From an uncultured Clostridia bacterium (GTDB lineage: Bacteria; Bacillota; Clostridia; Oscillospirales; CAG-272): 64,000 nucleotides of DNA. Of the stretch, positions 7,208-25,185 are shown piece after piece. A program made the translations under genes and the position numbers. Numbering within the stretch: the stretch's first letter is position 1; each line of letters begins with the position of its first letter. The notes under the pieces were generated by a model. It was not told the origin of the DNA and did not search any database. It saw only the letters and a list, made by a program, of their open reading frames with translations. The stretch covers positions 34,989-98,988 of the forward strand of contig CALYAD010000054.1 of NCBI GenBank assembly GCA_944393415.1, in the 5' to 3' direction.

Positions 7208-7247
7208 ACGACAGACCTCCTTTCACTTATTTTTCATTTTATAACAG

Positions 7248-7786: not shown

Positions 7787-7931
7787 CAATTATTCTTATC
7801 GCGTTTTTTTATAATATTTATAAGATCAAAAAAAATCACGTATATTTCATGAAACAATTAGCCATAAAATCGACATATGTGTTAAAATCCCGCTAAGAAA
7901 TCATTTTATTAATATTTTGTATAAAAAAACT

Positions 7932-8561: not shown

Positions 8562-8626
8562 TTTTTGATGCTTTTATAAATAATATGCGGTAAACATAAT
8601 TATTATTTCAGCGATAAAAACAGCTT

Positions 8627-8660
8627 TAAGGGGGAACTTTTTGAAAAAAATTCCCCCTTA
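8627..8660. repeat. Hairpin repeat TAAGGGGGAACTTTTT-G-AAAAAAATTCCCCCTTA (family member)
   Basis: Inverted repeat with one mismatch, read directly. It sits inside a 200-nt repeat mosaic (8620-8820). Confidence 0.8.
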
Positions 8661-8790
8661 TGATCCCCTTCAAAAACTTTTATTAAAGGGGTATATGAAT
8701 TGATTTATGCGGGCGGCCTTTTGAAAGTCAGGATCGGCGCCATGTACCCTCAGCGCTCCGCTGAAGTCCGGAAAAGTTTCAGGAAAATGT

Positions 8791-8818
8791 AATAACCCCT
8801 TTTGAAAAAGGGGTTATT
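8791..8818 (-). terminator. Hairpin repeat AATAACCCCTTTTGAAAAAGGGGTTATT acting as the likely nfnB terminator
   Basis: Perfect inverted repeat starting 10 nt after the nfnB stop. Confidence 0.6.
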
Positions 8819-8827
8819 ACGGAAAAA

Positions 8828-10237
8828 TCATTTATTCATCAGATACTTATCAATAGCCGAAGCGGCGGTTTTGCCAGCTCCCATTGCCGAAATAACCGTC
8901 GCGGCGCCGGTTACCGCGTCGCCTCCGGCATATACCGCTTCTCGCGAGGTCAGACCGTCCTCACTTACGATTATCCCTCCGTGAGAATTGACGTCAAGCC
9001 CCTTTGTTGTATTCTTTATCAGAGGATTCGGCGAGGTACCGATAGACATAATGACAGTGTCAACATCCAAAACAAATTCTGAGCCTTCGATCGGGATCGG
9101 TCTGCGTCTGCCTTTGGCATCCGGCTCGCCCAGTTCCATCTTTATGCATCTCATTCCGGTCACAAAGCCGTTCTTGGGGTCACGGGGATCGTCCGGGTTA
9201 TTGTAACCGAGAATCTCCACGGGATTGCGAAGAATCTGGAAATCGATTCCCTCCTCAATAGCGTGCTCGACCTCCTCTTTTCTTGCCGGGATCTCCTCCA
9301 TTGAACGACGGTAAACTATGTACACCTTTTCAGCTCCGAGCCTGAGCGCGGTACGCGCGGCGTCCATAGCCACGTTTCCGCCGCCGACTACAGCGACCTT
9401 GCCGCCTTTCATTATCGGGGTATGGGGATCGTCAAGATACGCCTTCATAAGGTTACTTCTGGTCAGGAACTCGTTTGCGGAGTAAACTCCCTTTAGGGAC
9501 TCTCCCGGAATACCCATAAAATTCGGAAGCCCGGCGCCGGAGCCTATAAATACCGCCTCATAGCCCATTTCAAACAGCTCATCTATAGTAAGCGTTTTAC
9601 CTATAACCACATTTGGCTCGATATCAACGCCAAGCGCCATGAGCGCTTCCACCTCTTTGGCAACGATAGCTTTGGGCAGTCTGAATTCCGGAATACCGTA
9701 GACCAGAACTCCTCCCGCGGTGTGAAGCGCCTCATATACCGTTACCTTGTAGCCCTTTTTGGCAAGGTCTCCCGCGCAGGTAAGTCCGGAAGGACCGGAG
9801 CCTACCACAGCCACCCTATGACCGTTTGATTTCGGCGGTATCGGCTGTTCTTTTACATGCTCGTTATGATAATCCGCTACAAATCTTTCAAGCCTTCCTA
9901 TACCGACAGGCTCGAATCTTATACCGAGAGTACATTTGCTTTCGCACTGGGTTTCCTGTGGACAGACGCGTCCGCAGACCGCAGGCAAAGAGGAGGATTT
10001 GGTTATTTCCGTGTACGCGCCCTCGAAATCACCGTTTTTGATATGTGAAATAAAATCGGGAATATTTATATTTACCGGACAACCCTGTACGCAGGGCTTG
10101 TTTTTGCAGTTCAGACAACGCTTTGCCTCCTCCACGGCTATCTCCGCGGTATATCCGAGTGCGACCTCGGAAAAATTGTGCGCTCTGACCTCCGGAGCCT
10201 GTGTGGGCATTTCATGTTTTTTAGGATCTACAGCCAC
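8828..10237 (-). CDS. nfnB: NADPH-dependent glutamate-synthase-beta/SudA-like oxidoreductase (NfnB-type large subunit)
   Basis: Two Cys clusters (CLNCKNKPC, CPVNINIP), two Rossmann GxGxxG motifs (VVGSGPSG, VVGGGNVA) and GGD near the C-terminus. Start trimmed to GTG 10237, 7 nt after GGAGGA. The longer tracked ORF would overlap nfnA by 134 nt. Confidence 0.85.
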   Translation of the reverse strand: MAVDPKKHEMPTQAPEVRAHNFSEVALGYTAEIAVEEAKRCLNCKNKPCVQGCPVNINIPDFISHIKNGDFEGAYTEITKSSSLPAVCGRVCPQETQCESKCTLGIRFEPVGIGRLERFVADYHNEHVKEQPIPPKSNGHRVAVVGSGPSGLTCAGDLAKKGYKVTVYEALHTAGGVLVYGIPEFRLPKAIVAKEVEALMALGVDIEPNVVIGKTLTIDELFEMGYEAVFIGSGAGLPNFMGIPGESLKGVYSANEFLTRSNLMKAYLDDPHTPIMKGGKVAVVGGGNVAMDAARTALRLGAEKVYIVYRRSMEEIPARKEEVEHAIEEGIDFQILRNPVEILGYNNPDDPRDPKNGFVTGMRCIKMELGEPDAKGRRRPIPIEGSEFVLDVDTVIMSIGTSPNPLIKNTTKGLDVNSHGGIIVSEDGLTSREAVYAGGDAVTGAATVISAMGAGKTAASAIDKYLMNK

Positions 10238-10250
10238 TTTCTCGTCCTCC

Positions 10251-11099
10251 TCAAGCTTTCTTGAACAAATTGCATGCCTCATCGTAGGCATGGCGCTCAA
10301 AATCCGCGTACATTCTGCCGCGCGACATCGCCTCGTCAAAATCCACCTCGTATCCGTTGAAATCCGGTCCGTCAACACAAGCAAACTTCGTTATCTTCTC
10401 GCCGTTACGGTTAAGGGTGAGACGGCATCCTCCGCACATGCCAGTACCGTCTATCATAATCGGGTTCATCGAGACCGTGACCGGGATACCGAACGGTTCG
10501 GCGGTCTTAACGACGAATTTCATCATTATCAAAGGTCCAATTGTTATTATCGCGTCATATCTTTCACCGCCCTCGAGCAGCTCCTTCAGCGGAACGGTAA
10601 CGTTGCCGTGACGACCGTATGAGCCGTCGTCTGTCATAAGAACCATTTTATCAGAGCAGGCCCGGAACTCCTCCTCAAGTATCACAAGGTCCTTGTTTCT
10701 GAAGCCGATTATGCTCGTCACATTCGCTCCGAGCCTGTGAAACTCCTGCGCCACAGGCATTGCGATGGCGCAGCCCACGCCTCCGCCGACGATACAAACC
10801 TTATTTATGCCTTCCGTATGAGTGGCGACTCCGAGCGGACCTACAAAATCCTGAATATATTCACCCTCGTTTTTATGGTTAAGACACTCGGTGGTAGCGC
10901 CGACTACCTGGAATATGATCTTGACCGTTCCCTTTTCCGGGTCACAGCCCGCCACGGTCAGCGGTATTCGCTCTCCATCCGCGTCCACGCGCAGTATAAT
11001 GAACTGCCCCGGCTTTGCCTTTGCCGCAACAAGAGGAGCCTCTATCTCCATCTGTGTCACCGTGGGATTCAAAACCTTTTTACAAGCGATCCTGTACAT
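10251..11099 (-). CDS. nfnA: Sulfide/dihydroorotate dehydrogenase-like FAD/NAD-binding subunit (NfnA-type small subunit)
   Basis: 282 aa with a C-terminal CGGC...C [2Fe-2S] motif and an FNR-like fold signature. It is paired with nfnB immediately downstream. Confidence 0.85.
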   Translation of the reverse strand: MYRIACKKVLNPTVTQMEIEAPLVAAKAKPGQFIILRVDADGERIPLTVAGCDPEKGTVKIIFQVVGATTECLNHKNEGEYIQDFVGPLGVATHTEGINKVCIVGGGVGCAIAMPVAQEFHRLGANVTSIIGFRNKDLVILEEEFRACSDKMVLMTDDGSYGRHGNVTVPLKELLEGGERYDAIITIGPLIMMKFVVKTAEPFGIPVTVSMNPIMIDGTGMCGGCRLTLNRNGEKITKFACVDGPDFNGYEVDFDEAMSRGRMYADFERHAYDEACNLFKKA

Positions 11100-11290: not shown

Positions 11291-12508
11291 TCAGAAATCG
11301 ACCTCGGTGTCATAGTAGCAGCATTTAAGAAGCTTTTCCATCTCTTCCTGGCTCGGCTGACGGGGATTGGAGCCGGTGCACGCGTCGCCGATCGCGTTCT
11401 TTGCAATCTCCGGGAGACGCTCAAGGAATACCTTCTCCGGAACAAATCCGTTTTCGCAGGGATAGCTGTCCGCGCCGTAGTTCTTTATGCAGTGCGGAAT
11501 ATTCAGATCGTCGTTCATCTTACGCAGATAAGCGATGAGAAGCGCTATCTTCTCTTTTACAGTGCTTCCGCCGAGATTCATGAAGTCCGCTATCTCAGCG
11601 TAACGCTTCGCGGCGGTTTCATCCTTGGCGTTGAAAGCAATGACTTTAGGAAGATACATGGCGTTTGCCGCACCGTGGATTATATGCGCGCCGTAATCGG
11701 CGAAAGCCGCTCCAGTTTTATGAGCCATTGAGTGAACGATACCGAGAAGGGCATTTGAAAACGCCATGCCCGCAAGACACTGCGCGTTGTGCATGGAATC
11801 ACGTTTCGCCATATCTCCGTTATAGGAAGCTACCAGATCATTTTGGATCATCTTGATGGCATGAAGCGCAAGCGGATCCGTATAATCGCAGTTGGCGGTA
11901 GAAACATACGCCTCGATAGAGTGCGTCATAGCGTCCATACCGGTGTGCGCTACCAGCTTCTTAGGCATCGTCTCCGCGAGCTCCGGGTCAACAATAGCTA
12001 CGTCAGGGGTGATCTCAAAGTCGGCTATCGGATACTTGATACCCTTCTGGTAGTCGGTGATAATGGAGAAAGCCGTAACCTCGGTAGCCGTACCGGACGT
12101 AGAGGAAATTGCGCAGAACCGCGCCTTATGACGAAGACTGGGAATTCCGAATACCTTGCACATTTCCTCAAAGGTTATGTCCGGGTACTCATACTTTATC
12201 CACATAGCCTTCGCCGCGTCAATAGGAGAACCGCCTCCCATGGCAATGATCCAGTCGGGCTTGAATTTAAGCATTGCGTCGGCGCCGCGCATAACAGTTT
12301 CGACGGACGGATCGGGCTCGATGCCCTCAAAAAGCTCGACCTCCATACCGGCTTCCTTCAGATAAGCCACAGCCTTGTCAAGAAATCCGAAGCGCTTCAT
12401 CGAGCCTCCGCCTACGCAGACCATCGCGCGCTCGCCTTTGAATGTTTTGAGCGCTTCAAGCGCTCCCTTACCGTGATAAAGATCTCTTGGAAGAGTAAAA
12501 CGTGCCAT
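11291..12508 (-). CDS. Iron-containing (group III) alcohol dehydrogenase
   Basis: 405 aa with GGGSPIDAAK and His-rich metal motifs (HSIEAY, HSMAHK, HG). GGAGGA SD. Confidence 0.9.
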   Translation of the reverse strand: MARFTLPRDLYHGKGALEALKTFKGERAMVCVGGGSMKRFGFLDKAVAYLKEAGMEVELFEGIEPDPSVETVMRGADAMLKFKPDWIIAMGGGSPIDAAKAMWIKYEYPDITFEEMCKVFGIPSLRHKARFCAISSTSGTATEVTAFSIITDYQKGIKYPIADFEITPDVAIVDPELAETMPKKLVAHTGMDAMTHSIEAYVSTANCDYTDPLALHAIKMIQNDLVASYNGDMAKRDSMHNAQCLAGMAFSNALLGIVHSMAHKTGAAFADYGAHIIHGAANAMYLPKVIAFNAKDETAAKRYAEIADFMNLGGSTVKEKIALLIAYLRKMNDDLNIPHCIKNYGADSYPCENGFVPEKVFLERLPEIAKNAIGDACTGSNPRQPSQEEMEKLLKCCYYDTEVDF

Positions 12509-14177: not shown

Positions 14178-14334
14178 TTTTATGTCCGTTCCTTTCTTAC
14201 ACACGATCAGCGTTTTGTGCGGTTTTTACTTGGCAAATCGGCGCCCCGCTTCTTAGCTTATATTTATATTATCATATCCGGTACGATTTTTCAAGTGGTT
14301 TTGCTTATAAAGCATAAGAAGGTAAAAAAATATA

Positions 14335-14495
14335 TAAGAAACCCTTTTGAAAAATGGTTTCTTACGATCTTCCCAAAACTTCTCTGAAAAAAGTGTTTGC
14401 CGCGTAAAGGCTGCGATGGATCAAGTCAGCGTTCAGACGGTTTCACGCTATCCCGCTTGCCGTATATTCCTTTAAGAAAAGTTTTTGGGAAGTAA
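14335..14495. repeat. Mosaic intergenic repeat copy (hairpin 14335-14364 plus downstream modules)
   Basis: Alignable by eye to the inverted sequence at 55519-55638. It ends with the AAAAGTTTTTGGGAAG module. Confidence 0.75.
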
Positions 14496-14504
14496 GGAAC
14501 GGTA

Positions 14505-14834
14505 TTATTCCTCCATTGCCCCGGATACCAACAGCTCCACAATATCGAGTATCCATTTCTGTTTATTTATCGGAAGCGTTTCAATAGTGTCGGAGAGCTT
14601 GCATGCCCGGTTACGTGCGGATTTGTCCACCAGATCACAGAAAACATCGTCCGCCGCGTATCCGAGACAATTCAGTGCCTCAACAAGCTTTTCATAGCTC
14701 GGCAGATTTATTCCTCTTTCAACGGCGGATATATAATTTGTGGATAAACCTATCATTTCGGCGAACTCTTCCTGCGTCAATCCTTTTTTCCTACGCATTT
14801 CCCTCAGTCTTTTCCCGATCTTATTTTGAACCAT
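14505..14834 (-). CDS. XRE-family helix-turn-helix transcriptional regulator
   Basis: IGKRLREMRRKKGLTQEEFAEMIGLSTNYISAVERG is a canonical Cro/C1 HTH. Start set at the ATG after GAGGGAG; the tracked start is a TTG. Confidence 0.85.
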   Translation of the reverse strand: MVQNKIGKRLREMRRKKGLTQEEFAEMIGLSTNYISAVERGINLPSYEKLVEALNCLGYAADDVFCDLVDKSARNRACKLSDTIETLPINKQKWILDIVELLVSGAMEE

Positions 14835-14856
14835 TTTCTCCCTCAATTCATTACTT

Positions 14857-14866
14857 ACAGTACTGT
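14857..14866. promoter_or_regulatory. 10-nt perfect palindrome ACAGTACTGT in the XRE 5' leader (possible auto-operator)
   Basis: Read directly from the sequence. It lies between the putative XRE promoter and the XRE start. Confidence 0.3.
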
Positions 14867-14889
14867 GCGACTGCTATACTTTAATATAT

Positions 14890-14918
14890 ATTATATGTGA
14901 TTATAAGTCCGCTTTGAA
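14890..14918 (-). promoter_or_regulatory. Putative promoter of the XRE gene
   Basis: The minus strand reads TTCAAA, 17 nt, TATAAT. Confidence 0.4.
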
Positions 14919-15080
14919 CGGTGTTATTAAGTTATTTATAACTTTAACTCAGTCATTTTGCATAAAATTCGTCATTTAAAGGAATAATGAGATAATATTT
15001 CTCCGATATTTCCATAACTATCGGAATAATCGATCAAAAAATTTCAGATACATTTATTCCCATAAATTAACATTTGATAC

Positions 15081-15109
15081 TTGACTTTTCCGCCAACATC
15101 GGTTATAAT
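15081..15109 (+). promoter_or_regulatory. Sigma-A type promoter for the small ORF at 15144
   Basis: TTGACT, 17 nt, TATAAT, located 35 nt upstream of the ATG. Confidence 0.6.
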
Positions 15110-15143
15110 AATAACAATATTAAACTAAGGAAAGCTGCTACAT

Positions 15144-15446
15144 ATGAAGAAAAAAGATGAATTATACCCCTCCTCGCGCGTGTACGCTTCAAGGATAAAT
15201 AAAAAAGATATCATACGCTCGGCTATATCACTTGCGCTACTCCTGCTTTTTATAATCCCTCTGTTTTTTCTTACCAAGGAACTGAATAACGATAAAGACA
15301 CGGACAAGTCCCTGCCGGTAAATGGTGAAAGCGGCTTATACAGTGATGCGGAAGCCGAAAGCGAGCCCGATCCGGATAACACCGCGTCCGAAGAGACCGG
15401 AGAAAACAGCGATGAATATGAGCTTCCGATAGTACCGGTCGGCTGA
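15144..15446 (+). CDS. Small single-pass membrane protein with an acidic C-terminal tail (100 aa)
   Basis: It has its own promoter, an AAGGAAAG SD, an ATG and a downstream terminator. One hydrophobic segment (IIRSAISLALLLLFIIPLFFL) is followed by a D/E/S-rich tail. No family recognised. Confidence 0.55.
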   Translation: MKKKDELYPSSRVYASRINKKDIIRSAISLALLLLFIIPLFFLTKELNNDKDTDKSLPVNGESGLYSDAEAESEPDPDNTASEETGENSDEYELPIVPVG

Positions 15447-15520
15447 AAGTGAGCCGGTATTAAAAACATTTTAAAAAGATAAAGATAAAAGTGACGTGAT
15501 GATTTTCCGGCTATAATAAA

Positions 15521-15560
15521 AACGGTTGTTTATTTACCGAGAGGTACTTAAGCAACCGTT
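15521..15560. terminator. Bidirectional rho-independent terminator
   Basis: AACGGTTG...CAACCGTT stem flanked by an A-run and a T-run. It sits between the convergent small ORF and the hydrogenase gene. Confidence 0.6.
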
Positions 15561-15612
15561 TTATATATTTTATTGAGAAGCCGCGCCGTTTTAACCTGAG
15601 CGCTCCGGTGTT

Positions 15613-17043
15613 TTATTTAAGCACGGATATCGCAGCGGTGATAGTTTTTTCATACGCCTGCTTACCGTATTTATCTACCTCAGCCTTATTCTTTTCACCG
15701 TGAGTGAGACAGCCCGCGCCTCCTATACAGCCCCCTATGCAGGCCATCCCTTCAATAAAGTTGGCGTCAAGAACGTTTTTGCTCTTCTTCAGTAAAGCCG
15801 CGCGACAGGCTTCTATACCGTCGCAGGATACCGGCTTGAGTTCAAAATCGGTTATACCGCGTTCCTTCAGCCCTTGAGCGACCGCGTCCGCAAGACCTCC
15901 GCAGCGAGCGAATATTCTCCCGAAATATGAGGCGTTATCGAGAACTCCCTCCTCAAGCTCGGTAATTTCCAGATCAATACTGTCAAAGAGCGCCTGAAGC
16001 TCCTCAAAGGTTATCGCCGCGTCAACATACGGACTGACGCTTTCCTGAAGCACCTCGGCCTTTTTAGCCGTGCATGGTCCGATAAAGACGATTCGGCTTT
16101 CGCTGTCGGTATCCTTTATGTATTTGGAGATGGTCGCCATCGGAGACAGATTATGCGAAATGTAAGGCGCAAGCTCCGGAAAGGACTTTCTTATATAGTC
16201 GACGAACGCGGGGCAGCACGAGCTTGTAAGAAAGCCCTTTTCCGCCAGCTCCTTTGATTCCTCGTACGCGACCATATCCGCGCCAAGCGCTGCCTCGATC
16301 ACCGTATGAAATCCCATTTTCTTAAGCCCCGTGATCACCTGTCCGAGCTTGGCGTATGTAAACTGGCTGGATATGGACGGAGCGACGACGGCGTACATTT
16401 TATATTTACTGTTTCCCTCGCTGCGCTTTATCAGATCTATGACGTCGAGAATGAACGATTTATCGTTGATAGCGCCGAACGGACACTGATAAACACAGGC
16501 CCCGCAGGCTATACATTTATCATTGTCTATTGACGCGGCGTTATCCTCGTTTATTGATATTGCCTTGATTTTACAGGCGTTCTGACACGGACGCTTGCGG
16601 TTTACTATAGCGGTATACGGGCAGACCTTCGCGCACGCTCCGCACTCCACGCACTTTGACTTATCGATATGCGCCACGTGATTGTGGTCGAAGGAGATCG
16701 CTCCTCTCTTGCAGGCATCCTCACAGCGATGGGCAAGACAGCCCCTGCAGGAGTCCGTGACCTCGTATCCCGCCGCCGGACACTCATCGCAGGCAATATC
16801 TATAACCTCGATGACGTTCGGATTGCTTTTATCCCCGCCCATGGCAAGCTTTACGCGTTCCGTGACTATCGCACGCTCTTTATATACGCAGCAGCGCATT
16901 GTCGGGATCTTTCCCGGAACTATTATGCCCGGGATATCCAGAACTGTCGTTTCGTTCAGATTATCCGCCCACGCCATGCGGGCCACCTCGCGAAGGACCT
17001 TATATTTCAGGTGCTGAACTTTTGTATCAAATATTCTCCTCAT
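15613..17043 (-). CDS. [FeFe]-hydrogenase, catalytic-type (monomeric group-B/HfsD-like) with multiple ferredoxin-like clusters
   Basis: H-cluster motifs TSSCCP, IGPCTAKKAE and EGMACIGGCIGGAG. Several CxxCxxCxxxCP motifs. AAAGAAAGGAAC SD. Confidence 0.9.
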   Translation of the reverse strand: MRRIFDTKVQHLKYKVLREVARMAWADNLNETTVLDIPGIIVPGKIPTMRCCVYKERAIVTERVKLAMGGDKSNPNVIEVIDIACDECPAAGYEVTDSCRGCLAHRCEDACKRGAISFDHNHVAHIDKSKCVECGACAKVCPYTAIVNRKRPCQNACKIKAISINEDNAASIDNDKCIACGACVYQCPFGAINDKSFILDVIDLIKRSEGNSKYKMYAVVAPSISSQFTYAKLGQVITGLKKMGFHTVIEAALGADMVAYEESKELAEKGFLTSSCCPAFVDYIRKSFPELAPYISHNLSPMATISKYIKDTDSESRIVFIGPCTAKKAEVLQESVSPYVDAAITFEELQALFDSIDLEITELEEGVLDNASYFGRIFARCGGLADAVAQGLKERGITDFELKPVSCDGIEACRAALLKKSKNVLDANFIEGMACIGGCIGGAGCLTHGEKNKAEVDKYGKQAYEKTITAAISVLK

Positions 17044-17118
17044 TTCAATGAGCGTTCCTTTCTTTGAGACGCTTCTGGCGAAAACAGTCTGATTTTTCGG
17101 GTTCGAACTGAAGCGCAG

Positions 17119-18291
17119 TCAGAAATAGCTTACCTTTATGCGCTTACCCATCTTTTTCAGACAGTCCGAAAGCTCTGAGACAAGATTCATTTTTATATTG
17201 AAGTTTATCGGAAGATCGGGATTCTGATGCGCCGGGTTTACCGCGCGCCCGACAAAAAAGTTTATATCCGTAGCCTCCTCAAACAAAAGCTGGCATATCA
17301 GAGAGGCGCCGTCGTGCTTAAAGCTCCATTGCTCGTAGCTCTTATTGTCACGGAGATAATCCTTTGCGTACGTCAGCACCTTGTTGACCGTAATAACCCC
17401 CTCGGTGACAAGATCGACGCCCTCTATCTCGGCGATAGGCGGTACGTCCGACTTCTCAAAATTCAGGCTTGCCTTGAGCGGTTTTCCGAGATACTTGGCC
17501 GCAATCGACGAGGTAGTTCCTCCGCATATAATATGCTTGCCCTCCTTTGAGAAAAAAAGCGACATCATCCTGTCGCAGTCGTCCCGGTTGGAGGGAGGAC
17601 CGAAGAGCAGGTTCATAGGCACGCGCTTTCGGAGTTTGACCACGCACGCGGTGGCGTCGTCACCCGGCATGCCTCCGTACAGCTTGTCGCACTCGTCTAC
17701 AAGTATGGTAGATAAGGTCTTGGCGGTATAGCCTACGTCCGCTATCATTTCCATAAACTCTACTATATCCTCGCGTTTCCAGCCGAAGTTATATTCGAGT
17801 CCCATGCCGGCGTGCGGACAGCCGTCGCTCATGAGCACGAAAACATCGTTTTCCTGAAGCCTGATCACCGACTTATAGATCTTTTTGCCTCCGATGCTCA
17901 TCTCCGTCATCGGATAATCCGTGTTTTTCCCGTTACGGAGAAGTATCACCTGGGGATTATCGTACTGTATGACCTCCGCTTCGCTGTTGTTTACGATATG
18001 AACTATCGTAAATGTCGAATAAGCGACTCCGCGCACCGAACAGATCGGAAGCGTAGCCGCTATGGTGGCCACGCAGTCCTCAAGCGACAGTCCCTGTGCC
18101 ATCATGGTTGATATGATTTTCGAGGTGAGGGTTGAGAGAATACTTGCCTTGACTCCGCTGCCGAGACCGTCCGCCAGCACCACTACAACGGAATCCTCGC
18201 CCTGCTCCACTATATCCACATGGTCTCCGCAAAGCTGTTCGCCGTAGTGGTTTATGCTTTTATACCCGATATCCGCACATAGATCATTCAT
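17119..18291 (-). CDS. SpoIIE/PP2C-family protein phosphatase (HfsC-like) with an uncharacterised C-terminal half
   Basis: N-terminal GDHVDI...VVLADGLGSGVKASILS...MSDGCPHAG...DDATACVV is a PP2C-type signature. Its start overlaps the upstream stop by 8 nt. Confidence 0.85.
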   Translation of the reverse strand: MNDLCADIGYKSINHYGEQLCGDHVDIVEQGEDSVVVVLADGLGSGVKASILSTLTSKIISTMMAQGLSLEDCVATIAATLPICSVRGVAYSTFTIVHIVNNSEAEVIQYDNPQVILLRNGKNTDYPMTEMSIGGKKIYKSVIRLQENDVFVLMSDGCPHAGMGLEYNFGWKREDIVEFMEMIADVGYTAKTLSTILVDECDKLYGGMPGDDATACVVKLRKRVPMNLLFGPPSNRDDCDRMMSLFFSKEGKHIICGGTTSSIAAKYLGKPLKASLNFEKSDVPPIAEIEGVDLVTEGVITVNKVLTYAKDYLRDNKSYEQWSFKHDGASLICQLLFEEATDINFFVGRAVNPAHQNPDLPINFNIKMNLVSELSDCLKKMGKRIKVSYF

Positions 18292-19960
18292 CTGTTATCG
18301 ACTCCTTAAGCTTTGTCAGGGCTATCTTGGTCTCCGCGGCGGTCTCTCCGAGCAGCGACGCTATCTCCTGCACTATCCTCATCTGCTTATCCACGACGTT
18401 ATCCGCTATTTCTATCGTCTGCCGGCTGATGCTTTCCTTCTTCTTTTTCTCGTTTTCCTCGTCCGTCACGTCTCTCATAATGCATATAAGAAGGTGATAA
18501 TCCTGATCATAGATCACCGTCTGCTCTATATATTTCTTGTATTCCGCGAGATATACCCTCATATCGCGTACGCTTCTTCTGCTCTCAAGCACCTTCGCGA
18601 ACACCGATGGATCAAGTATGCGAATGACCGGCTCTCCGAGAACGTCGGAAGCAGAGCGGATATTCATTATCTTTCTCGCCGCCGCGTTTATCTGCTGAAC
18701 CTCAAGCTTGTCGTTGAGCACCATAAGCCCGTTCGGGGTGTTGTTTACAATATTGTCGGAAAAGCTCTCCGCCTTTTCCTTGAGGTACGGCAGGCACATG
18801 GATATCTCCGCCTTGCCCTGCAGTATGGCGACCGCTTTCTCCCTGCAGGTATCGTAACCGCAGGAACCGCAGTTAAGCTCATCCTCGGGTCTTGTCTTAC
18901 CCATCTGTCTTAAAACGTCGCTTATTTCCGATTCGGAAGGCACGCGGGAGCTTTTGTCCAGAACTCCGAATTGCTTTTTAAGGGCAAGAGGATCCTGATC
19001 CGCGATCCTGAAATCCTTTTTGCCGGCGTACCCGGATACAGCCATATAGTCTTTAACGGGGGAGCGGTGATACTTTTCCATTACCGGCCCTCCGATACAG
19101 CTTCCCGTACACGCCGACATCTCTATAAAGCAGCGGTGTATCTTTCCGCTCTCTATATCTCTGAGAGCCGCGATACAGTTTTCCGTACCGTCTATGGCAA
19201 GATATGTATATCCCGGAGCGTCCTGGGTCATGGTCTTGAGTATGCCTCCCGCGGTCGGGAAAAATCTCGCCCTGCTCTCCTCGGTATTATCCATTTCAGA
19301 CCTCAGCGTTATTCCCTTTTCCTTAAGCCACTCGGTAAGCTCCTCATAAGTCAGCGCCGCGTCCACTATACCTTCGTATCTCTGAACCTCGTCCTTTTTG
19401 GCTACGCAGGGACCGATAAACACGGTCTTTGCTCCCGGATAACGCTTTTTGATATCTATACAGTGAGCCTGCATAGGTGAGAGTACGTCCGCGAGATACG
19501 GCAGCTCCCTCGGAAAATACTTCTGTATAAGCAGGTTAACCGAATGACAGCAGGAGCTTATAACTATATCGCTTACTCCCTCGCTGAGTATTCTTTCATA
19601 CTCCTTTTTGACTATCGTCGCGCCTATCGCGGTCTCCTCAACGTCATAAAATCCGAGCGCCTTCAAAGCCTGACGCATCGCGTCTATGCCGACTCCGTCA
19701 TAGTTGGCTATAAATGACGGGGCAAGGCTGACGACGACCTTTTCACCGCTCTGAAGAAGCACCCTTACCTTTTCGGTATCGTTTACTATCTCCTTTGCGT
19801 TCTGCGGGCAAACCACAAAGCACTGACCGCACAGGATGCACTCATCCCCTATTATATGCGCCTGGTTGCCGGAAAACCGTATTGACTTGACCGGACAATG
19901 CCGGATACATTTATAACAGTTCTTACAGTTGGATTTTTTCAGCGTGAGACAATCTGTCAC
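18284..19960 (-). CDS. Sensory-type [FeFe]-hydrogenase-like protein with a C-terminal PAS domain (HydS/HfsB-like, group C)
   Basis: Two CxxCxxCxxxCP motifs; variant H-cluster motifs SSCCHS, IGPCVAKKDE and EMSACTGSCIGGP; an extra CGSCGYDTC patch; a PAS-like C-terminus (NTPNGLMVLNDKLEVQQINAAARKIM...). GTG start overlaps the upstream stop (GTGA). Confidence 0.85.
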   Translation of the reverse strand: MTDCLTLKKSNCKNCYKCIRHCPVKSIRFSGNQAHIIGDECILCGQCFVVCPQNAKEIVNDTEKVRVLLQSGEKVVVSLAPSFIANYDGVGIDAMRQALKALGFYDVEETAIGATIVKKEYERILSEGVSDIVISSCCHSVNLLIQKYFPRELPYLADVLSPMQAHCIDIKKRYPGAKTVFIGPCVAKKDEVQRYEGIVDAALTYEELTEWLKEKGITLRSEMDNTEESRARFFPTAGGILKTMTQDAPGYTYLAIDGTENCIAALRDIESGKIHRCFIEMSACTGSCIGGPVMEKYHRSPVKDYMAVSGYAGKKDFRIADQDPLALKKQFGVLDKSSRVPSESEISDVLRQMGKTRPEDELNCGSCGYDTCREKAVAILQGKAEISMCLPYLKEKAESFSDNIVNNTPNGLMVLNDKLEVQQINAAARKIMNIRSASDVLGEPVIRILDPSVFAKVLESRRSVRDMRVYLAEYKKYIEQTVIYDQDYHLLICIMRDVTDEENEKKKKESISRQTIEIADNVVDKQMRIVQEIASLLGETAAETKIALTKLKESITDE

Positions 19961-20229
19961 CTCTGATCAGCTCCTTTCGCGTCGAGCGCCTTAAGTATAT
20001 TTTCATTCCAGAATTCACGGAAGTTCTCGACAGTTATTCCCGTAAACACCTTGTCGTTTACCGTTATTGTTACGCCAACCCGGTTGCACCTTCCCGTGCA
20101 AAAGCTGCCGGAAAGCTCTATCTCATTTTCAAGCCCGCATTTTTCCACTTCATTCTGCATAAGCTCAACTATCTCCCGGGACCCCTTAAGATGACACGAG
20201 CTTCCCACACATATCTGTACGTTCAACAT
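19957..20229 (-). CDS. Thioredoxin-like [2Fe-2S] ferredoxin-domain protein (NuoE/HydC-like, HfsA-like)
   Basis: 90 aa with the Cys pattern CVGSSCH...FCTGRC. It is a paralog of the adjacent 79-aa gene. Confidence 0.8.
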   Translation of the reverse strand: MLNVQICVGSSCHLKGSREIVELMQNEVEKCGLENEIELSGSFCTGRCNRVGVTITVNDKVFTGITVENFREFWNENILKALDAKGADQR

Positions 20230-20244
20230 GATTTTTCTACCGTT

Positions 20245-20484
20245 TCACGCCTTCGGAAGGATCTCGGAATTGAAAAATTCCTTCGTACTCTCGGGACTCA
20301 CTGAGTGAAATTCATCGTCCACCGTAACGCAGACTCCCTGCTGACACTTACCCATACAGAAGGTTCCGCTGAGCTCTACCTTATCCTTAAGTCCGTTTTC
20401 GGAAATAAGATACTGAAGCTGTTCAACTACCTGACGCGAGCCTTTAATGTGGCATGAACTGCCAATACATACTGTTACTTTCAT
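20245..20484 (-). CDS. Thioredoxin-like [2Fe-2S] ferredoxin-domain protein (tandem paralog)
   Basis: 79 aa with the Cys pattern CIGSSCH...FCMGKC. Confidence 0.8.
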   Translation of the reverse strand: MKVTVCIGSSCHIKGSRQVVEQLQYLISENGLKDKVELSGTFCMGKCQQGVCVTVDDEFHSVSPESTKEFFNSEILPKA

Positions 20485-20515
20485 AATTAATTACCCAAAT
20501 TTTCACTTCTAAAAT

Positions 20516-20805
20516 ATTCCTGAAGCTTCCCTGAAAAAAGGTGCGGCATCTCCGTCCCCGGCTTCTCCGGATTTCAGCTGTGCGCAAAGTATGCGCGAAG
20601 CGTTACTCTCGGCTTTCAATAAGTGGCTAATGTCCCGTCATTCAGCGTTTTCAGTGGGAGATTGTATCCCCCACTGAAAAAAATTAAGCGGCGCCCGGCG
20701 CCTAAGAGGCGGGGGACATCTTAAATTAGTTATAAAAGCCGGAGACGAAGATCATATATTCCGCCCGCCGAAATTCTCCTTAAGAAAAGTTATCGGGAAG
20801 TTTGA
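20516..20805. repeat. Mosaic intergenic repeat copy
   Basis: Shares the module GCTTCTCCGG.TTTCAGC.G.GCGCAAAG with 62221-62255, and a module of about 85 nt with 41490-41571. Confidence 0.75.
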
Positions 20806-20878
20806 TCACTTGACTTTTCTTATAATTAACGAGACGCGCAAAAAGCGGGGATGAAATATAAAATGCCGCGATTATTTA

Positions 20879-21628
20879 TTATTCATACTCTACAACGTCT
20901 ACCCAGGATAGCAGGAACTGTCTTTCCTTTTCGTTGCCCTTTACCGACTGTGAAGCGGCGACTATCGGCATCCATTTCTGAACGTACTGCTTTGCCGTAT
21001 TGCTCTTCTTGCAGAATAGAGAAAGGTATTTATCCGCTCCCTCTATATCTCCCGCGAGCCAGAACAAAAGGTAAGTTCTTGCCGCGTCGGCGGAAGCGTT
21101 GCCCTGCGTGGCATGCGACCAGTCTATAATATACGGAGTTCCGTCCTCCGATATGATTATATTGGAAGGGTTGAAATCGCCATGGCATACTTTATTGTGC
21201 TTGGGCATTCCCTCAAGTCTGGTGTGAAGCTCATATCTTGTCGTGGCGTCAAGGTCGGAGGCGCTGATCTTACGGTTCATTTTGTCCTTAAGTCTGTTGA
21301 GAAGAGGGCAGGTCTTCGAGTGAATGGACAGCTGGATATCCACGAAAAGATTCATATACTCATCCTTTTTCTCCGGGTTTTCCTGCATCAGCTGCGCAAG
21401 CGTTTTACCTTTAATAAAATCGGAAACGATGGCCCATTTTCCGTCAATCATGGTGACCGCCTTTACCTTCGGTATGTTAAGCCCGGTCTCCTCTATTCTC
21501 GCCTGGTTGAGCGCTTCGTTCAGAACGTCCGCTTTAGAATAATCCGAATCAAAAACCTTTATGCAATCGTCGCCGTCGCGATATACCGTTTTATTGTTTC
21601 TTACCGCTATAACTCTGTCAAGCTTCAT
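20879..21628 (-). CDS. Aminoglycoside/choline-kinase-fold phosphotransferase family protein (kinase-like)
   Basis: Catalytic-loop motif HGDFNPSNIII followed by IIDWSHA. AAGGAGGAAG SD. The start is only 14 nt after the adhE stop. Confidence 0.75.
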   Translation of the reverse strand: MKLDRVIAVRNNKTVYRDGDDCIKVFDSDYSKADVLNEALNQARIEETGLNIPKVKAVTMIDGKWAIVSDFIKGKTLAQLMQENPEKKDEYMNLFVDIQLSIHSKTCPLLNRLKDKMNRKISASDLDATTRYELHTRLEGMPKHNKVCHGDFNPSNIIISEDGTPYIIDWSHATQGNASADAARTYLLFWLAGDIEGADKYLSLFCKKSNTAKQYVQKWMPIVAASQSVKGNEKERQFLLSWVDVVEYE

Positions 21629-21642
21629 GGCTTACTTCCTCC

Positions 21643-24339
21643 TTATATTTTTTTAGCCGCGCTTTTTCTTCCGCGCGTTGATTTTTTTACCGGCTCCGCG
21701 GCTACGGCGCCCGGAAGCTCTTTCTCCGTAAACGTCCTGCCGTAGTACGCGTTTAGATACATCTGCTTTATCTCGCTCATCAGGGGATATCTCGGGTTCG
21801 CTCCCGTGCACTGGTCGTCAAACGCCTGCTCCACCATTTCGTCGAGTCTGTTAAGGAAGTCCGCTTCGTCCGGAACGTATTCGCGGATAGTGGGCTTTAT
21901 ACCGACCTTCGCCTTGAGCTCGTCGATCGCGCCGATAAGGTTGGAAAGCTTTTCCTGATTTGTCTCCCCCTTGATCCCGAGATAGTCCGCCACCTCGGCA
22001 TAACGCTCCAGAGTATGCGGATGATCGTACTGCGGGAAGGTACCCATTTTTACAGGAACGTCGCATGCGTTGAAGCGCATGACCTCGTCTATCATAAGAG
22101 CGTTCGCCACTCCGTGCGGGAGGTGATGGAAGGCGCCGAGCTTGTGTGCCATCGAGTGGCAGACGCCGAGGAAGGCGTTCGCGAATGCCATACCCGCCAT
22201 TGTAGCGGCGTTCGCCATTTTTTCACGCGCCGCCGGATCGCTTTGACCGTTATCGTAGGCTCTCGGCAGATACTCAAATATCATCTTAAGAGCGCGGAGA
22301 GCGAGTCCGTCGGTATAGTCTGTCGCCATCATGGACGCATACGCTTCAAGCGCGTGCGTCACGGCGTCGATACCGGAGGCGGCGGTAAGACCCTTTGGAG
22401 CGGTCATATGGAAGTCCGCGTCTATTATCGCCATCTTCGGCAGAAGCTCATAATCGGCAAGCGGATATTTTACTCCGCTCTTCTCGTCGGTAATAACCGC
22501 GAACGGAGTGACCTCCGAGCCGGTACCGGCGGAGGTGGGTATCGCTATAAAATACGCCTTTTCTCCCATCTTCGGGAAGGTATATACTCTCTTGCGGATA
22601 TCCATGAAGCGCATCGCCATATCCATGAAATCCGCCTCCGGATGCTCGTAAAGCACCCACATTATCTTACCGGCGTCCATAGCCGAGCCGCCTCCGAGCG
22701 CTATGATGCAGTCAGGCTGGAACGCCTTCATCTGCTCGGCTCCCGCCTTCGCGCACGCGAGCGTCGGGTCCGGAGCGACATCAAAGAAGGTGGTATGGGC
22801 TATACCCATTTCGTCAAGCTTATCCGTTATCGGCTTGGTATAGCCGTTGCTGTAAAGAAAGCTGTCGGTAACTATAAACGCCTTTTTCTTGTTCATGACG
22901 GTCCTAAGCTCGTCAAGCGCGACAGGGAGGCAGCCTTTCTTAAGATATACCTTTTCAGGGGCGCGGAACCAAAGCATATTTTCTCTCCTCTCAGCTACTG
23001 TCTTTATATTTATAAGGTGCTTAACTCCGACGTTCTCGGAAACGCTGTTTCCTCCCCAGCTTCCGCAGCCGAGCGTAAGCGACGGCGCGAGCTTGAAGTT
23101 ATACAGGTCTCCTATACCGCCGTGAGAGGACGGAGTATTTACAAGTATGCGGCAGGTCTTCATACGGGACTGGAACTCGTCAAGCTTTTCCTTCTCCGTA
23201 AGCGCGTTCAGATATATGGAGGAGGTATGACCATAGCCGCCGTCCGCGATAAGGTGCTCGGCCTTGTCGAAGGCGTCCTTTATATTTTTCGCTCTGTACA
23301 TGGCGAGCACGGGAGAAAGCTTCTCATGCGCAAACTCCTCGGAAAGCTCCACGCTCTCAACCTCGCCTATCAGTATCTTGGTACCCTCCGGAACGGCAAC
23401 GTCCGCAAGCGCCGCGATGGTGACCGGCTTCTGACCGACTATCTTCGCGTTCAGCGCGCCGTTGATTATAATGGTCTTGCGTACCTTTTCCGTCTCCTCA
23501 GGGTCAAGGAAATAGCAGCCTCTTGCCGCGAATTCCTTTTTAACCGCATCATAAACCTTGTCAAGCACTATAACCGACTGCTCGGAAGCGCATATCATAC
23601 CGTTGTCAAAGGTCTTTGAATGTATTATTGAGTTTACCGCGAGAATTATATCCGCGGTATCGTCGATGATCGCGGGAGTGTTGCCGGCGCCGACTCCGAG
23701 AGCCGGTTTTCCGGAGGAATACGCCGCTTTCACCATACCGGGACCTCCGGTGGCCAGAATGATATCGGCCTCCTTCATCAGGAGATTGGTCATTTCGAGG
23801 CTCGGGATATCGATCCAGCTTATAATACCCTCCGGAGCGCCCGCCGCCACCGCCGCCTCAAGCACTATCTTGGCCGCGGCTATGGTCGAGCTTTTGGCTC
23901 TCGGATGTGGGCTGATGATAATACCGTTTCTGGTCTTAAGAGAAATAAGAGTTTTGAATATAGCGGTCGAGGTGGGGTTTGTCGTCGGGATCACCGCCGC
24001 GATTACGCCTATAGGCTCCGCTATCCTTTTTATACCGTACGCCTTGTCCTCCTCTATAACCCCGCATGTCTTTACATTTTTATAAGCGTTATAAATATAT
24101 TCGGAAGCGTAGTGGTTTTTGATAACCTTATCCTCTACCACTCCCATTCCGGTTTCCTCGACCGCGAGCTTCGCAAGAGGGATCCTCGCCTTATTGGCCG
24201 CCATGGCTGCTTCAAGGAATATTTTATCCACCTGTTCCTGCGTATATGACGCGAACTTTGCCTGCGCCTCTCTCACCCGGGCAATGGCTGCCTCAAGCTT
24301 TTCCACGCTGTCCACTATTTCGTAGTTCTTCTCTTTCAT
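21643..24339 (-). CDS. adhE: Bifunctional acetaldehyde-CoA/alcohol dehydrogenase
   Basis: 898 aa with an N-terminal ALDH domain and a C-terminal Fe-ADH domain (GGGSAMDAGK, HSMAHKLG). Lys-rich C-terminal tail. Confidence 0.97.
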   Translation of the reverse strand: MKEKNYEIVDSVEKLEAAIARVREAQAKFASYTQEQVDKIFLEAAMAANKARIPLAKLAVEETGMGVVEDKVIKNHYASEYIYNAYKNVKTCGVIEEDKAYGIKRIAEPIGVIAAVIPTTNPTSTAIFKTLISLKTRNGIIISPHPRAKSSTIAAAKIVLEAAVAAGAPEGIISWIDIPSLEMTNLLMKEADIILATGGPGMVKAAYSSGKPALGVGAGNTPAIIDDTADIILAVNSIIHSKTFDNGMICASEQSVIVLDKVYDAVKKEFAARGCYFLDPEETEKVRKTIIINGALNAKIVGQKPVTIAALADVAVPEGTKILIGEVESVELSEEFAHEKLSPVLAMYRAKNIKDAFDKAEHLIADGGYGHTSSIYLNALTEKEKLDEFQSRMKTCRILVNTPSSHGGIGDLYNFKLAPSLTLGCGSWGGNSVSENVGVKHLINIKTVAERRENMLWFRAPEKVYLKKGCLPVALDELRTVMNKKKAFIVTDSFLYSNGYTKPITDKLDEMGIAHTTFFDVAPDPTLACAKAGAEQMKAFQPDCIIALGGGSAMDAGKIMWVLYEHPEADFMDMAMRFMDIRKRVYTFPKMGEKAYFIAIPTSAGTGSEVTPFAVITDEKSGVKYPLADYELLPKMAIIDADFHMTAPKGLTAASGIDAVTHALEAYASMMATDYTDGLALRALKMIFEYLPRAYDNGQSDPAAREKMANAATMAGMAFANAFLGVCHSMAHKLGAFHHLPHGVANALMIDEVMRFNACDVPVKMGTFPQYDHPHTLERYAEVADYLGIKGETNQEKLSNLIGAIDELKAKVGIKPTIREYVPDEADFLNRLDEMVEQAFDDQCTGANPRYPLMSEIKQMYLNAYYGRTFTEKELPGAVAAEPVKKSTRGRKSAAKKI

Positions 24340-24358
24340 TGTGAGCCTCCTGATTGAT

Positions 24359-25003
24359 TTATGATATTATTTTATTTTTCTGTGTTTTCAGATGTTCCGA
24401 CAGGATTGCCAGGGAAGACGCCATATTTTCATTTTTCACGAAAATATTATCCGGCGCGTTCAGGCGCTTTGGCGCGAAATTCCATATCGCCCTTATCCCG
24501 CTTTCGACCATCAGATCGCATACCTCCTGCGCCTGCCCCTCAGGCACGGTTATGATGCCGATCTCGACTCCGTTTTCCCTGCAAAATTTCGGAAATTCGG
24601 ATACCGGATATACGCATTTTCCGGGCCCCGGAGCCTTCAGCTTACGCTCGTCGCAGTCAAAGCCGGCAAGTATATCAAGGCCGTACTCGCTGAACCCCTC
24701 GTATTCAAGAAGCGCGTTTCCGAGTCTCCCGGCGCCTATTATCGCGGCGTGTACGGTCGTACCGTAGCCGAGAGCGCTTTCCAGACGTTTTATCAGCGCC
24801 GGCACCTCATAGCCTATTTTTGGTCTGCCTTCTCCGCTTATCGCTCCGAGATCCTTTCTCACCTGGACTTCACCAAGCTTGAGCGCCTTAGCCACGGCTG
24901 TTGCGGATACCGTTTCCGTTCCGTCTTTATGCAGTGACCTGATATAATGCAGATATACCGGAAGTCTTTCTATAACGGATTTTGAAAGCGTACTTTTGTT
25001 CAT
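24359..25003 (-). CDS. rex: Redox-sensing transcriptional repressor Rex
   Basis: ERLPVYLHYIRSL... winged helix plus the Rossmann motif IIGAGRLGNAL. It ends 19 nt upstream of adhE. Confidence 0.93.
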   Translation of the reverse strand: MNKSTLSKSVIERLPVYLHYIRSLHKDGTETVSATAVAKALKLGEVQVRKDLGAISGEGRPKIGYEVPALIKRLESALGYGTTVHAAIIGAGRLGNALLEYEGFSEYGLDILAGFDCDERKLKAPGPGKCVYPVSEFPKFCRENGVEIGIITVPEGQAQEVCDLMVESGIRAIWNFAPKRLNAPDNIFVKNENMASSLAILSEHLKTQKNKIIS

Positions 25004-25093
25004 TTTGCTCCTTTTAAACCTTACTTTCCTTTGTGAAAAATATTACGCGCGCACCGTATCGCTCGGTCGGTGTCCGCGTTTCCGGTAATATAT

Positions 25094-25122
25094 ATTTTAT
25101 CACAATCGGAGCATTGACGCAA
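25094..25122 (-). promoter_or_regulatory. Sigma-A type promoter of the rex-adhE operon
   Basis: The minus strand reads TTGCGT, 17 nt, TAAAAT, preceded by TGA (extended -10). Confidence 0.55.
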
Positions 25123-25137
25123 GTATCAATTTCACAT

Positions 25138-25165
25138 ATCGGTATATCGATATCGATATACCGAT
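25138..25165. promoter_or_regulatory. 28-nt perfect palindrome ATCGGTATATCGAT/ATCGATATACCGAT (candidate operator)
   Basis: Verified base by base. It lies about 16 nt upstream of the rex -35 and 20 nt downstream of the LysR stop. No U-tract follows on either strand. Confidence 0.5.
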
Positions 25166-25185
25166 CCATTAAAACGCCTCCCGCA

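Follow-up and report, generated by a model that had tools for sequence, protein, structure and literature searches.

A putative H2-sensing hydrogenase and its coupled phosphatase in a ferredoxin-hydrogenase gene cluster of an uncultured gut Clostridia bacterium

When the gene of a hydrogenase-like protein overlaps that of a PP2C phosphatase and a second hydrogenase gene follows, does the first protein make H2, or does it report on it? We addressed this question for five genes in a stretch of 64,000 nucleotides (nt), hereafter the window, from an uncultured Clostridia bacterium of the Oscillospirales (CAG-272; contig CALYAD010000054.1, positions 34,989 to 98,988). The five open reading frames (ORFs), all co-directional on the minus strand and spanning 20484..15613 in the ORF listing, encode two small ferredoxins (Fdx79 and Fdx90), a hydrogenase-like protein of 558 amino acids (aa) that we call HydS, a phosphatase and a second hydrogenase, in that order. 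Our results suggest that these genes probably form an H2-responsive module with regulatory and catalytic parts, such as has been described as hydS-PP2C-hydA2 in Ruminococcus albus and as hfsBCD in Thermoanaerobacterium. An earlier reading of this DNA from its letters alone (the sequence-only reading) had likened the cluster to phosphatase-linked group C sensory hydrogenases and to hfs, and both the architecture and the gene order agree with that likeness. The five co-directional ORFs that it listed are exact, and the motifs that it quoted (SSCCHS, EMSACTGSCIGGP, CGSCGYDTC, TSSCCP, GPCTAKKAE and EGMACIGGCIGG) are all present in the translations.

The sensory hydrogenase and its partners

The Pfam domains of HydS are two copies of Fer4 (aa 8-55), Fe_hyd_lg_C (aa 73-292, E 2e-48), the FeS domain PF04060 (aa 362-391, E 4e-11) and a PAS domain (PF00989, aa 402-498). 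The published M2f, or group C, architecture consists of two [4Fe-4S] clusters, the H-domain, a Cx2Cx4Cx16C motif and PAS (PMC8163306). The C-terminal PAS-like domain had already been proposed, and it is upheld by a borderline PF00989 match together with the homology of aa 404-558 to stand-alone PAS proteins (E 1e-16 to 1e-20). HydS, which has more than 8000 homologues, scores below the cutoffs of both NCBIfam [FeFe]-hydrogenase models (B1, 193 bits vs 450; A, 85 vs 406), which cover groups A and B only, and is ~31% identical to the neighbouring group B hydrogenase.

Motif statistics were taken over 85 HydS sequences (the window protein and 84 relatives), and active-site positions are given in CpI numbering, from an alignment to solved group A structures. 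All the H-cluster-ligating cysteines of HydS (L1, L2 and L3) align with those structures. The L2 motif FIGPCVAKKDE has a Gly at the position of M353, and the L3 motif IEMSACTGSC has a Ser at that of M497. In L1, I-S-S-C-C-H-S aligns with F-T-S-C-C-P and the proton-relay Cys (C299) is kept; SCCH is found in ~80 of the 85 sequences. HydS retains the S319 equivalent as well; among C299, S319 and E279, only E279, replaced by Lys, is clearly lost. Thus, the second-sphere trait of group C is matched in part, at M353 and M497, with C299 and S319 unchanged. The sequence-only reading had stressed the deviant H-cluster motifs; this stands for M353G and M497S, whereas SSCCHS departs from TSCCP only by T to S and P to H and keeps both cysteines, a smaller deviation than had been implied. 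Moreover, C299 is not conserved in M2e/M2f according to PMC8163306 and PMC10055695, and the window clade departs from that generalisation. Note that a distant HydS (35% identity), encoded at L090:6282-7985, has the L1 sequence IVTSCPAI, with a Ser at the proton-relay position. As read from the alignments, this position is variable among HydS lineages, being Cys in the window clade, Ala in TmHydS and Ser in the L090 protein.

The Cx2Cx4Cx16C motif is conserved in 85/85 HydS sequences, in which the terminal motif (D/E)KQM..Q(E)IA.LLGET.AETK is nearly invariant. From its architecture and motifs, we provisionally assign the 558-aa protein to group C (M2f-type) as a putative sensory hydrogenase. 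It shares with TmHydS (Thermotoga maritima, group C M2f; PMC10055695) the two [4Fe-4S] clusters, the H-domain, Cx2Cx4Cx16C, PAS, and the Gly and Ser at M353 and M497; it differs at the C299 position, where TmHydS has Ala131 while the window protein and ~80/85 relatives have the Cys of SCCH and the S319 equivalent is kept. With TamHydS (Thermoanaerobacter mathranii, group D M2e; PMC8163306, PMC13104023) it has in common the N-terminal clusters, the H-domain, Cx2Cx4Cx16C and a proposed sensing role. TamHydS, however, has no PAS domain, lies in another gene context and carries M353S and M497L (PMC8163306). Membership of group D was ruled out by the presence of PAS and by substitutions that are G/S, not S/L.

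The 390-aa phosphatase belongs to a family of 543 clusters at 50% identity (exhaustive profile-free search, E < 1e-30), nearly all members of which have 380-395 aa and align end to end. D23, D41-G42 and D212 do not vary among 61 diverse members, of which at least 90% have D156; these Asp residues match the GD, DGxGxG, SDG and DD metal-binding motifs of SpoIIE (5mqh), in agreement with the PP2C phosphatase that had been called. The AlphaFold2 model is confident and has two domains (pLDDT 91, pTM 0.91). For the N-terminal domain, the best Foldseek matches were SpoIIE, RsbX and RsbU (E 1e-13 to 1e-10). The PP2C fold begins at residue 4, and therefore this phosphatase has no N-terminal sensor or linker, unlike the regulated bacterial PPM phosphatases. 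At residues 223-390 the model shows a second, five-stranded alpha/beta domain of ~170 residues (pLDDT 90), which is conserved over the 543 clusters and has the invariant loops GPP, CGGTT, DLVTEG and NPAH. This C-terminal domain gave zero Pfam matches even at E 10, zero PDB sequence matches and no Foldseek match against the PDB at E <= 1e-3; its best matches, all weak, were Rossmann-like and methylglyoxal-synthase-like folds (TM 0.33-0.42). It occurs in at least Clostridia, Erysipelotrichia, Thermotogota and Acidobacteriota. The grouping of its conserved loops at the strand ends suggests a pocket for a small ligand.

The 476-aa hydrogenase matches the curated model TIGR04105, 'monomeric [FeFe] hydrogenase B1', with 562 bits against a cutoff of 450 (aa 5-448/476), and carries the motifs TSSCCP, GPCTAKKAE and EGMACIGGC. 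Since the curated NCBIfam B1 cutoff is passed, this partner is a group B enzyme. It had been called a catalytic-type hydrogenase, correctly as regards a hydrogenase with intact motifs, though it is not a prototypical group A member. Group B [FeFe]-hydrogenases have recently been shown to be the main ferredoxin-dependent H2 producers of gut bacteria (PMC12578642), and the window enzyme is probably a ferredoxin-dependent H2-evolving hydrogenase and a regulated output of the module.

Two of the gene junctions overlap. The GTGA at 19957-19960 places the TGA stop of Fdx90 within the GTG start of HydS (GAT CAG AGG TGA / GTG ACA GAT), and ATGAATGA at 18284-18291 is an 8-nt overlap of the HydS stop and the phosphatase start (GAT GAA TGA / ATG AAT GAT). 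Both overlaps, noted before, are real, and an AGGAG-type ribosome-binding site stands ahead of each. The conservation of the overlaps is strong, and from the overlaps we infer stoichiometric co-expression. Moreover, the five genes look like one transcription unit in this genome because terminator-like hairpins flank both ends (Table 1).

Gene order in near and distant relatives

The close relatives are the closest 80 loci (77-85% identity) from a scan of species-representative genomes. A profile search with a diverse family profile gave 80-84% identical relatives only, and the distant contexts come from contigs encoding phosphatase homologues. All 80 close loci are metagenome-assembled genomes (MAGs) of gut or rumen Clostridia, labelled Oscillospiraceae, Acutalibacteraceae, Ruminococcaceae or 'Eubacteriales'. 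Their near-universal order is ferredoxin, (ferredoxin), HydS, phosphatase and group B hydrogenase; the position of Fdx90 is without a match in ~10/80. The HydS/phosphatase overlap is identical in 78/79 close loci. Because the order recurs in nearly all 80 genomes and the overlap in 78/79, the cluster is not a chance arrangement. In four loci (L050, L072, L077 and L079), ~980 nt are inserted between the phosphatase gene and that of the group B hydrogenase, which elsewhere usually stand 13-40 nt apart.

The synteny extends upstream. Seventy loci reach far enough upstream to be informative. In ~51 of these 70 a kinase gene lies directly upstream, usually 16-45 nt away, and in at least 27 AdhE precedes the kinase, often with Rex ahead; a few loci have Rex and the kinase, or Rex alone. 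In the window the order is LysR, Rex, AdhE, kinase and the five-gene unit. We therefore take the functional neighbourhood, on gene order, to be probably eight genes, rex-adhE-kinase plus the five. The sequence-only reading had the five right and missed the upstream three, which most relatives have in the same place. A terminator-like hairpin divides rex-adhE-kinase from the five in this genome. By analogy with the known systems discussed below, AdhE is a probable co-regulated output.

Eight distant modules, with phosphatase homologues at 33-53% identity, were examined. L081 (Breznakia, 53%) has LysR, an iron alcohol dehydrogenase (Fe-ADH), HydS and the phosphatase, the last two with an 8-nt overlap; L092 (49%) has Rex, LysR, Fe-ADH, HydS and phosphatase; L093 (43%) has ferredoxin, HydS, phosphatase and a group B-type hydrogenase; L091 (41%) has ferredoxin, HydS and phosphatase; and L090 (40%) and L082 (33%) have HydS and phosphatase only. 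In L088 (Geotoga petraea, Thermotogota; 7213-10847), the order is ferredoxin, a 167-aa PAS protein, phosphatase, ferredoxin and group B-type hydrogenase. In L089 (an Acidobacteriota MAG; 4949-6862), it is ferredoxin, a 167-aa PAS protein and phosphatase, adjoining the divergently transcribed gene of a 1144-aa hydrogenase. In seven of these lineages the sensor, HydS or a bare PAS protein, stands directly before the phosphatase: the two genes overlap by 8 nt in three lineages and by more in another two, and a short gap parts them in the last two; in the eighth, the Acidobacteriota MAG, the PAS protein also stands just before it. The HydS/phosphatase overlap is still seen at 33% identity. Thus, the invariant core is a sensor gene followed directly by a phosphatase of the same family, while the upstream ferredoxin, the downstream hydrogenase and a nearby alcohol dehydrogenase or Rex are frequent and optional.

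The Geotoga PAS protein is cysteine-free, and the one from the Acidobacteriota MAG has no Cys-cluster motif. Both align with aa 404-558 of HydS (they are the stand-alone PAS proteins referred to above) and carry the same terminal helix motif. We conclude from these alignments that PAS plus the terminal helix is the likely output module toward the phosphatase.

The same two loci bear on the ferredoxins. Fdx79 and Fdx90 each match the C-terminal half of PF01257 (Fdx79, E 1.7e-8) with a Cx4C...Cx3C pattern, which in Fdx79 reads Cx4Cx31Cx3C, and they are 46% identical to each other. Fdx79 is 41% identical to the ferredoxin preceding the PAS/HydS gene in Geotoga and the Acidobacteriota MAG, vs 26% to the hydrogenase-side ferredoxin. 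Both window ferredoxins are nearer the sensor-side protein, from which we conclude that the small ferredoxin probably belongs to the sensor side.

Table 1. Coordinates of the five-gene unit, its domains and its associated upstream genes (positions in the window).
Feature	Position	Strand	Basis or remark
Fdx79, minimal thioredoxin-like [2Fe-2S] ferredoxin, 79 aa	20245..20484	-	first gene of the unit; PF01257
Fdx90, tandem paralogue of Fdx79, 90 aa	19957..20229	-	PF01257
HydS, putative H2-sensing group C (M2f-type) [FeFe]-hydrogenase, 558 aa, GTG start	18284..19960	-	domains and motifs
HydS H-cluster domain, aa 73-292	19085..19744	-	L1 ISSCCHSV; L2 FIGPCVAKKDE; L3 IEMSACTGSCIGGP
HydS C-terminal Cx2Cx4Cx16C [4Fe-4S] motif, aa 364-389	18794..18871	-	PF04060; CGSCGYDTC-x16-C
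HydS PAS domain, aa 402-498	18467..18757	-	PF00989; homology to L088/L089 PAS proteins
HydS conserved C-terminal helix motif DKQMRIVQEIASLLGETAAETK, aa 524-545	18326..18391	-	proposed docking/linker element toward the phosphatase
SpoIIE-type PP2C phosphatase, 390 aa	17119..18291	-	PF07228
Phosphatase PP2C (SpoIIE-type) catalytic domain, aa 1-222	17626..18291	-	PF07228, aa 32-220, E 4e-15
Phosphatase unannotated C-terminal alpha/beta domain, aa 223-390	17122..17625	-	AlphaFold2 model and conservation
Group B [FeFe]-hydrogenase, 476 aa	15613..17043	-	TIGR04105
Terminator-like hairpin AACGGTTG...CAACCGTT then TTTTAT, 3' of the hydrogenase gene	15516..15560	-	3' end of the unit; read from sequence
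Terminator-like hairpin and T-run, between kinase gene and Fdx79	20684..20705	-	read from sequence
APH/choline-kinase/RIO-like kinase, 249 aa, candidate opposing kinase	20879..21628	-	associated, not in the unit; PF01636, E 1.6e-12
AdhE, bifunctional aldehyde/alcohol dehydrogenase, 898 aa	21643..24339	-	associated; ORF; Aldedh and Fe-ADH annotation of the identical gene in L084
Rex redox-sensing repressor	24359..25003	-	associated; NF003994, 260 bits vs cutoff 130
LysR-type regulator, just upstream of rex	25186-26133	-	window neighbour

A proposed signalling route and its alternatives

How could H2 act through these proteins? We propose that H2 would be bound or oxidised by HydS, with which the small ferredoxins would probably swap electrons. 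Through PAS and the C-terminal helix of HydS, the redox or conformational change would then reach the co-translated phosphatase, where it would act on the switch helices and so set the activity. HydS and the phosphatase would in this way amount to a split PAS-linker-PPM enzyme (compare RsbP) that is assembled co-translationally, and we consider this the simplest reading because HydS ends in PAS and a helix, and a linker-less PPM domain starts 8 nt inside hydS. In RsbU and RsbP, the sensor domains act via helical linkers that pack on the PPM 'switch' helices alpha1/alpha2 (PMC12143880); by analogy with the PAS-linker-PPM phosphatases of that study, the terminal helix of HydS may serve as the docking or linker element. 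Like RsbP and RsbU/RsbT, the window proteins have the SpoIIE/RsbU-type PP2C fold with its catalytic residues, and PAS then a helix right before the phosphatase domain. They differ from them in that sensor and phosphatase are two polypeptides whose genes are joined by the 8-nt overlap, in that the phosphatase has an extra C-terminal domain, and in that no STAS substrate is encoded nearby.

Downstream of this switch, the phosphatase, countered by the adjacent APH-like kinase where one is present, would set the phosphorylation state of a target. At high H2, the target would raise the group B hydrogenase and AdhE, and Rex would add a parallel control by NADH/NAD+. The net effect would be that reducing equivalents move from acetate and H2 to ethanol as H2 accumulates. 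In R. albus, a hydrogen consumer that holds H2 down lowers expression of the eight-gene cluster 111-fold (PMC6776011). In Thermoanaerobacterium, deletion of hfsB increases adhE expression, hydrogenase activity and ethanol yield, for which intact hfsC and hfsD are required (PMC5707799), and hfsD alone is sufficient for the phenotype (PMC11837493). By analogy, the hfs genetics fit a sensor that restrains the output when the signal is absent.

A more specific version of this scheme is tentative, and we hold it to be possible rather than likely. Rather than a 'sensory hydrogenase' proper, the unit may be a three-part signalling platform, made of a thioredoxin-like [2Fe-2S] ferredoxin, a PAS domain with the QM..QEIA.LLGET.AETK helix at its end and a dedicated two-domain phosphatase. 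The HydS helix would act in trans on the phosphatase switch, and the C-terminal alpha/beta domain, with a phosphate or nucleotide pocket made from its loops, would be a second, small-molecule input. The H-cluster domain would be an exchangeable input, absent from the Thermotogota and Acidobacteriota members, and the APH-like kinase would have been recruited as the opposing enzyme in gut Oscillospirales. The target could then be the hydrogenase/AdhE machinery and not a sigma-factor switch.

Several observations weigh against an H2-responsive module that works as proposed. The PAS match of HydS passes narrowly (23.5 bits, cutoff 22.6). With its retained C299-equivalent Cys and S319-equivalent Ser, HydS may turn over H2 faster than TmHydS does. 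As for the signal route, the C-terminal cluster of TamHydS is unresponsive to H2 (PMC13104023). The kinase appears, by its nearest structures (see below), as like small-molecule kinases as protein kinases, and a small-molecule substrate is possible; it is also absent from 8/8 of the distant modules examined. Neither a STAS protein nor a conserved transcription factor was found in the module. Finally, a search for the Rex operator TTGTKAAnnnnTTMACAA (a generic consensus, with up to 3 mismatches) gave 7 matches vs 7.4 expected, none of them in the relevant intergenic regions.

Another possibility could be that the module senses not H2 but cellular redox, that is, the ferredoxin or electron pool, with the [2Fe-2S] protein and the FeS clusters as the input and the H-domain equilibrating the pool with H2. 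The Geotoga and Acidobacteriota loci speak for it: there, the sensor slot holds a [2Fe-2S] ferredoxin and a PAS protein (cysteine-free in Geotoga) without an H-cluster domain, and both window ferredoxins are orthologous to this sensor-side ferredoxin. The NADH sensor Rex is, moreover, often a neighbour. Against this, by far the most of the sampled members carry PAS in one protein with a complete H-cluster domain, the R. albus response follows the H2 concentration (PMC6776011), and several HydS-phosphatase pairs (L081, L082, L090 and L092) come without a ferredoxin gene. We consider redox sensing of this kind unlikely.

The five genes might also encode one multi-subunit catalytic hydrogenase, the main H2 producer of the organism, with HydS as a second catalytic subunit, the ferredoxins as electron-transfer subunits and the phosphatase as a post-translational tuner. 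This would agree with the tight gene coupling and with the fact that HydS keeps all its H-cluster ligands, the proton-relay Cys and S319. The hfs operon, too, was first described as encoding the principal hydrogenase of T. saccharolyticum, in which hydrogenase activity and H2 both fall when the entire operon is deleted (PMC5707799, PMC11837493). However, deletion of hfsB alone raises hydrogenase activity, hfsD alone is enough for the phenotype, and M353G and M497S are those of the low-activity sensor TmHydS (PMC8163306, PMC10055695). PAS and a phosphatase make a signalling architecture. In addition, HydS-phosphatase pairs exist without an adjoining hydrogenase (L082, L090, L091 and L092), and in L088 and L089 a phosphatase of the same family is paired with a PAS protein lacking any H-domain. 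A catalytic complex of this sort is, in our opinion, quite improbable.

Least probable of all, and very doubtful, is that the phosphatase serves an ordinary partner-switching (STAS/anti-sigma) pathway encoded elsewhere, with the proximity of HydS reflecting input sensing only and the kinase being an unrelated small-molecule kinase: SpoIIE, RsbX and RsbU, whose substrates are STAS proteins according to PMC11418112, are indeed its closest relatives in sequence and fold, the organism has sporulation genes such as YqfD, and the nearest solved relatives of the kinase include choline kinase and aminoglycoside kinases. However, in none of the neighbourhoods inspected, close or distant, was a STAS or anti-sigma gene seen, and this phosphatase differs from the partner-switching ones by its family-specific C-terminal domain and by having no N-terminal regulator.

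Surrounding genes, known systems and meaning

The H2-responsive module that we favour lies next to genes that may oppose it or answer to it. The catalytic core of the kinase is intact, with K24, E38, HGD151 (G150-D151), N156 and D169 invariant in 51 orthologues. Its nearest solved structures, all at weak E-values, are choline kinase, Bud32 and the aminoglycoside kinases (APH). A role in defence was rejected, since in PADLOC the phosphatase matched no defence system and the kinase had weak generic kinase-loop matches alone.

Between the kinase gene and Fdx79 lies a spacer of 395 nt (20485-20878, minus strand), which is lineage-specific, the distance being 16-45 nt in most relatives. The spacer folds stably (z -3.2) and holds, adjoining the terminator-like hairpin, a 15-bp perfect hairpin (~20645-20683) that is not repeated elsewhere in the window. 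An Rfam scan of 14000-26000 gave no match at E <= 1, and the spacer corresponds to no known riboswitch or leader in that database.

Further upstream, the LysR-type regulator may be a recurrent member of the neighbourhood and a candidate regulator of the output. In L081 (Breznakia) and L092, both distant lineages, Fe-ADH, HydS and the phosphatase likewise come after a LysR gene. A palindromic Rex-operator match at 25812-25829 was dropped, as it lies inside the LysR ORF.

On the other side of the unit, and on the same strand, are an XRE-family helix-turn-helix regulator (14505-14846) and a 493-aa NAT_N/GNAT_C protein (12723-14204), neither of them syntenic with the module in relatives. Further downstream, again on the same strand, is an iron alcohol dehydrogenase (12508..11291). 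There is also an NfnAB-like pair, consisting of a DHODB-type Fe-S subunit (11099..10251) and a GltD-like Fer4_20/Pyr_redox_2 subunit (10384..8828). The hydrogen-cycling model of Thermoanaerobacterium couples an iron alcohol dehydrogenase and NfnAB-type enzymes to HfsD (PMC11837493).

How does the window compare with the systems already described? As described for R. albus 7 (Zheng et al. 2014, cited in PMC5707799; PMC6776011), the eight-gene cluster comprises hydA2, adhE, hydS, a Ser/Thr kinase, a PP2C phosphatase and further regulatory genes. Going by these published descriptions, it resembles the window in having a PAS-bearing sensory hydrogenase, a Ser/Thr phosphatase, a kinase, a ferredoxin-only hydrogenase and AdhE, all co-directional, and in its number of genes, which is also eight in the window. 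It differs in its catalytic partner, which is of group A1 in R. albus (PMC6776011) and of group B in the window, and in that the hairpin and the 395-nt spacer split the window cluster into three plus five genes.

The hfsABCD operon of T. saccharolyticum and T. thermosaccharolyticum (PMC5707799, PMC11837493), again compared by description, has like the window a small upstream gene, a PAS-hydrogenase (HfsB), a serine phosphatase (HfsC) and a ferredoxin-linked hydrogenase (HfsD). Its link to adhE expression and to Rex is genetic, whereas in the window these two genes also stand next to the cluster on the DNA. Two thioredoxin-like ferredoxins are encoded ahead of HydS in the window, while HfsA is described as aligning poorly with known proteins (PMC11837493), a description with no obvious fit to a thioredoxin-like ferredoxin. 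A kinase is not reported for hfs; a kinase gene is present in the window.

The system is thus already known from R. albus and Thermoanaerobacterium, and the window is a further instance of it, in an abundant uncultured lineage of gut Clostridia. The sequence-only reading had described a known system whose signalling is open, and the literature agrees (PMC5707799, PMC11837493, PMC6776011, PMC13104023). The overlap kept down to 33% identity, the terminal helix and the variants without an H-domain are testable leads; they do not make a new category.

In gut metagenomes the clade is highly abundant, and its contigs come from samples of humans, ruminants and other animals. Finding the interaction partners of sensory hydrogenases is the stated bottleneck of the field (PMC13104023), and our comparison yields candidates: an obligate, translationally coupled phosphatase, the terminal helix of HydS as the likely contact, a ligand-type phosphatase domain, an atypical kinase, and natural variants without an H-domain. 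H2 sensing and the switch between acetate plus H2 and ethanol in gut and rumen fermenters bear on methane emissions, on gut gas metabolism and on the engineering of biofuel strains.

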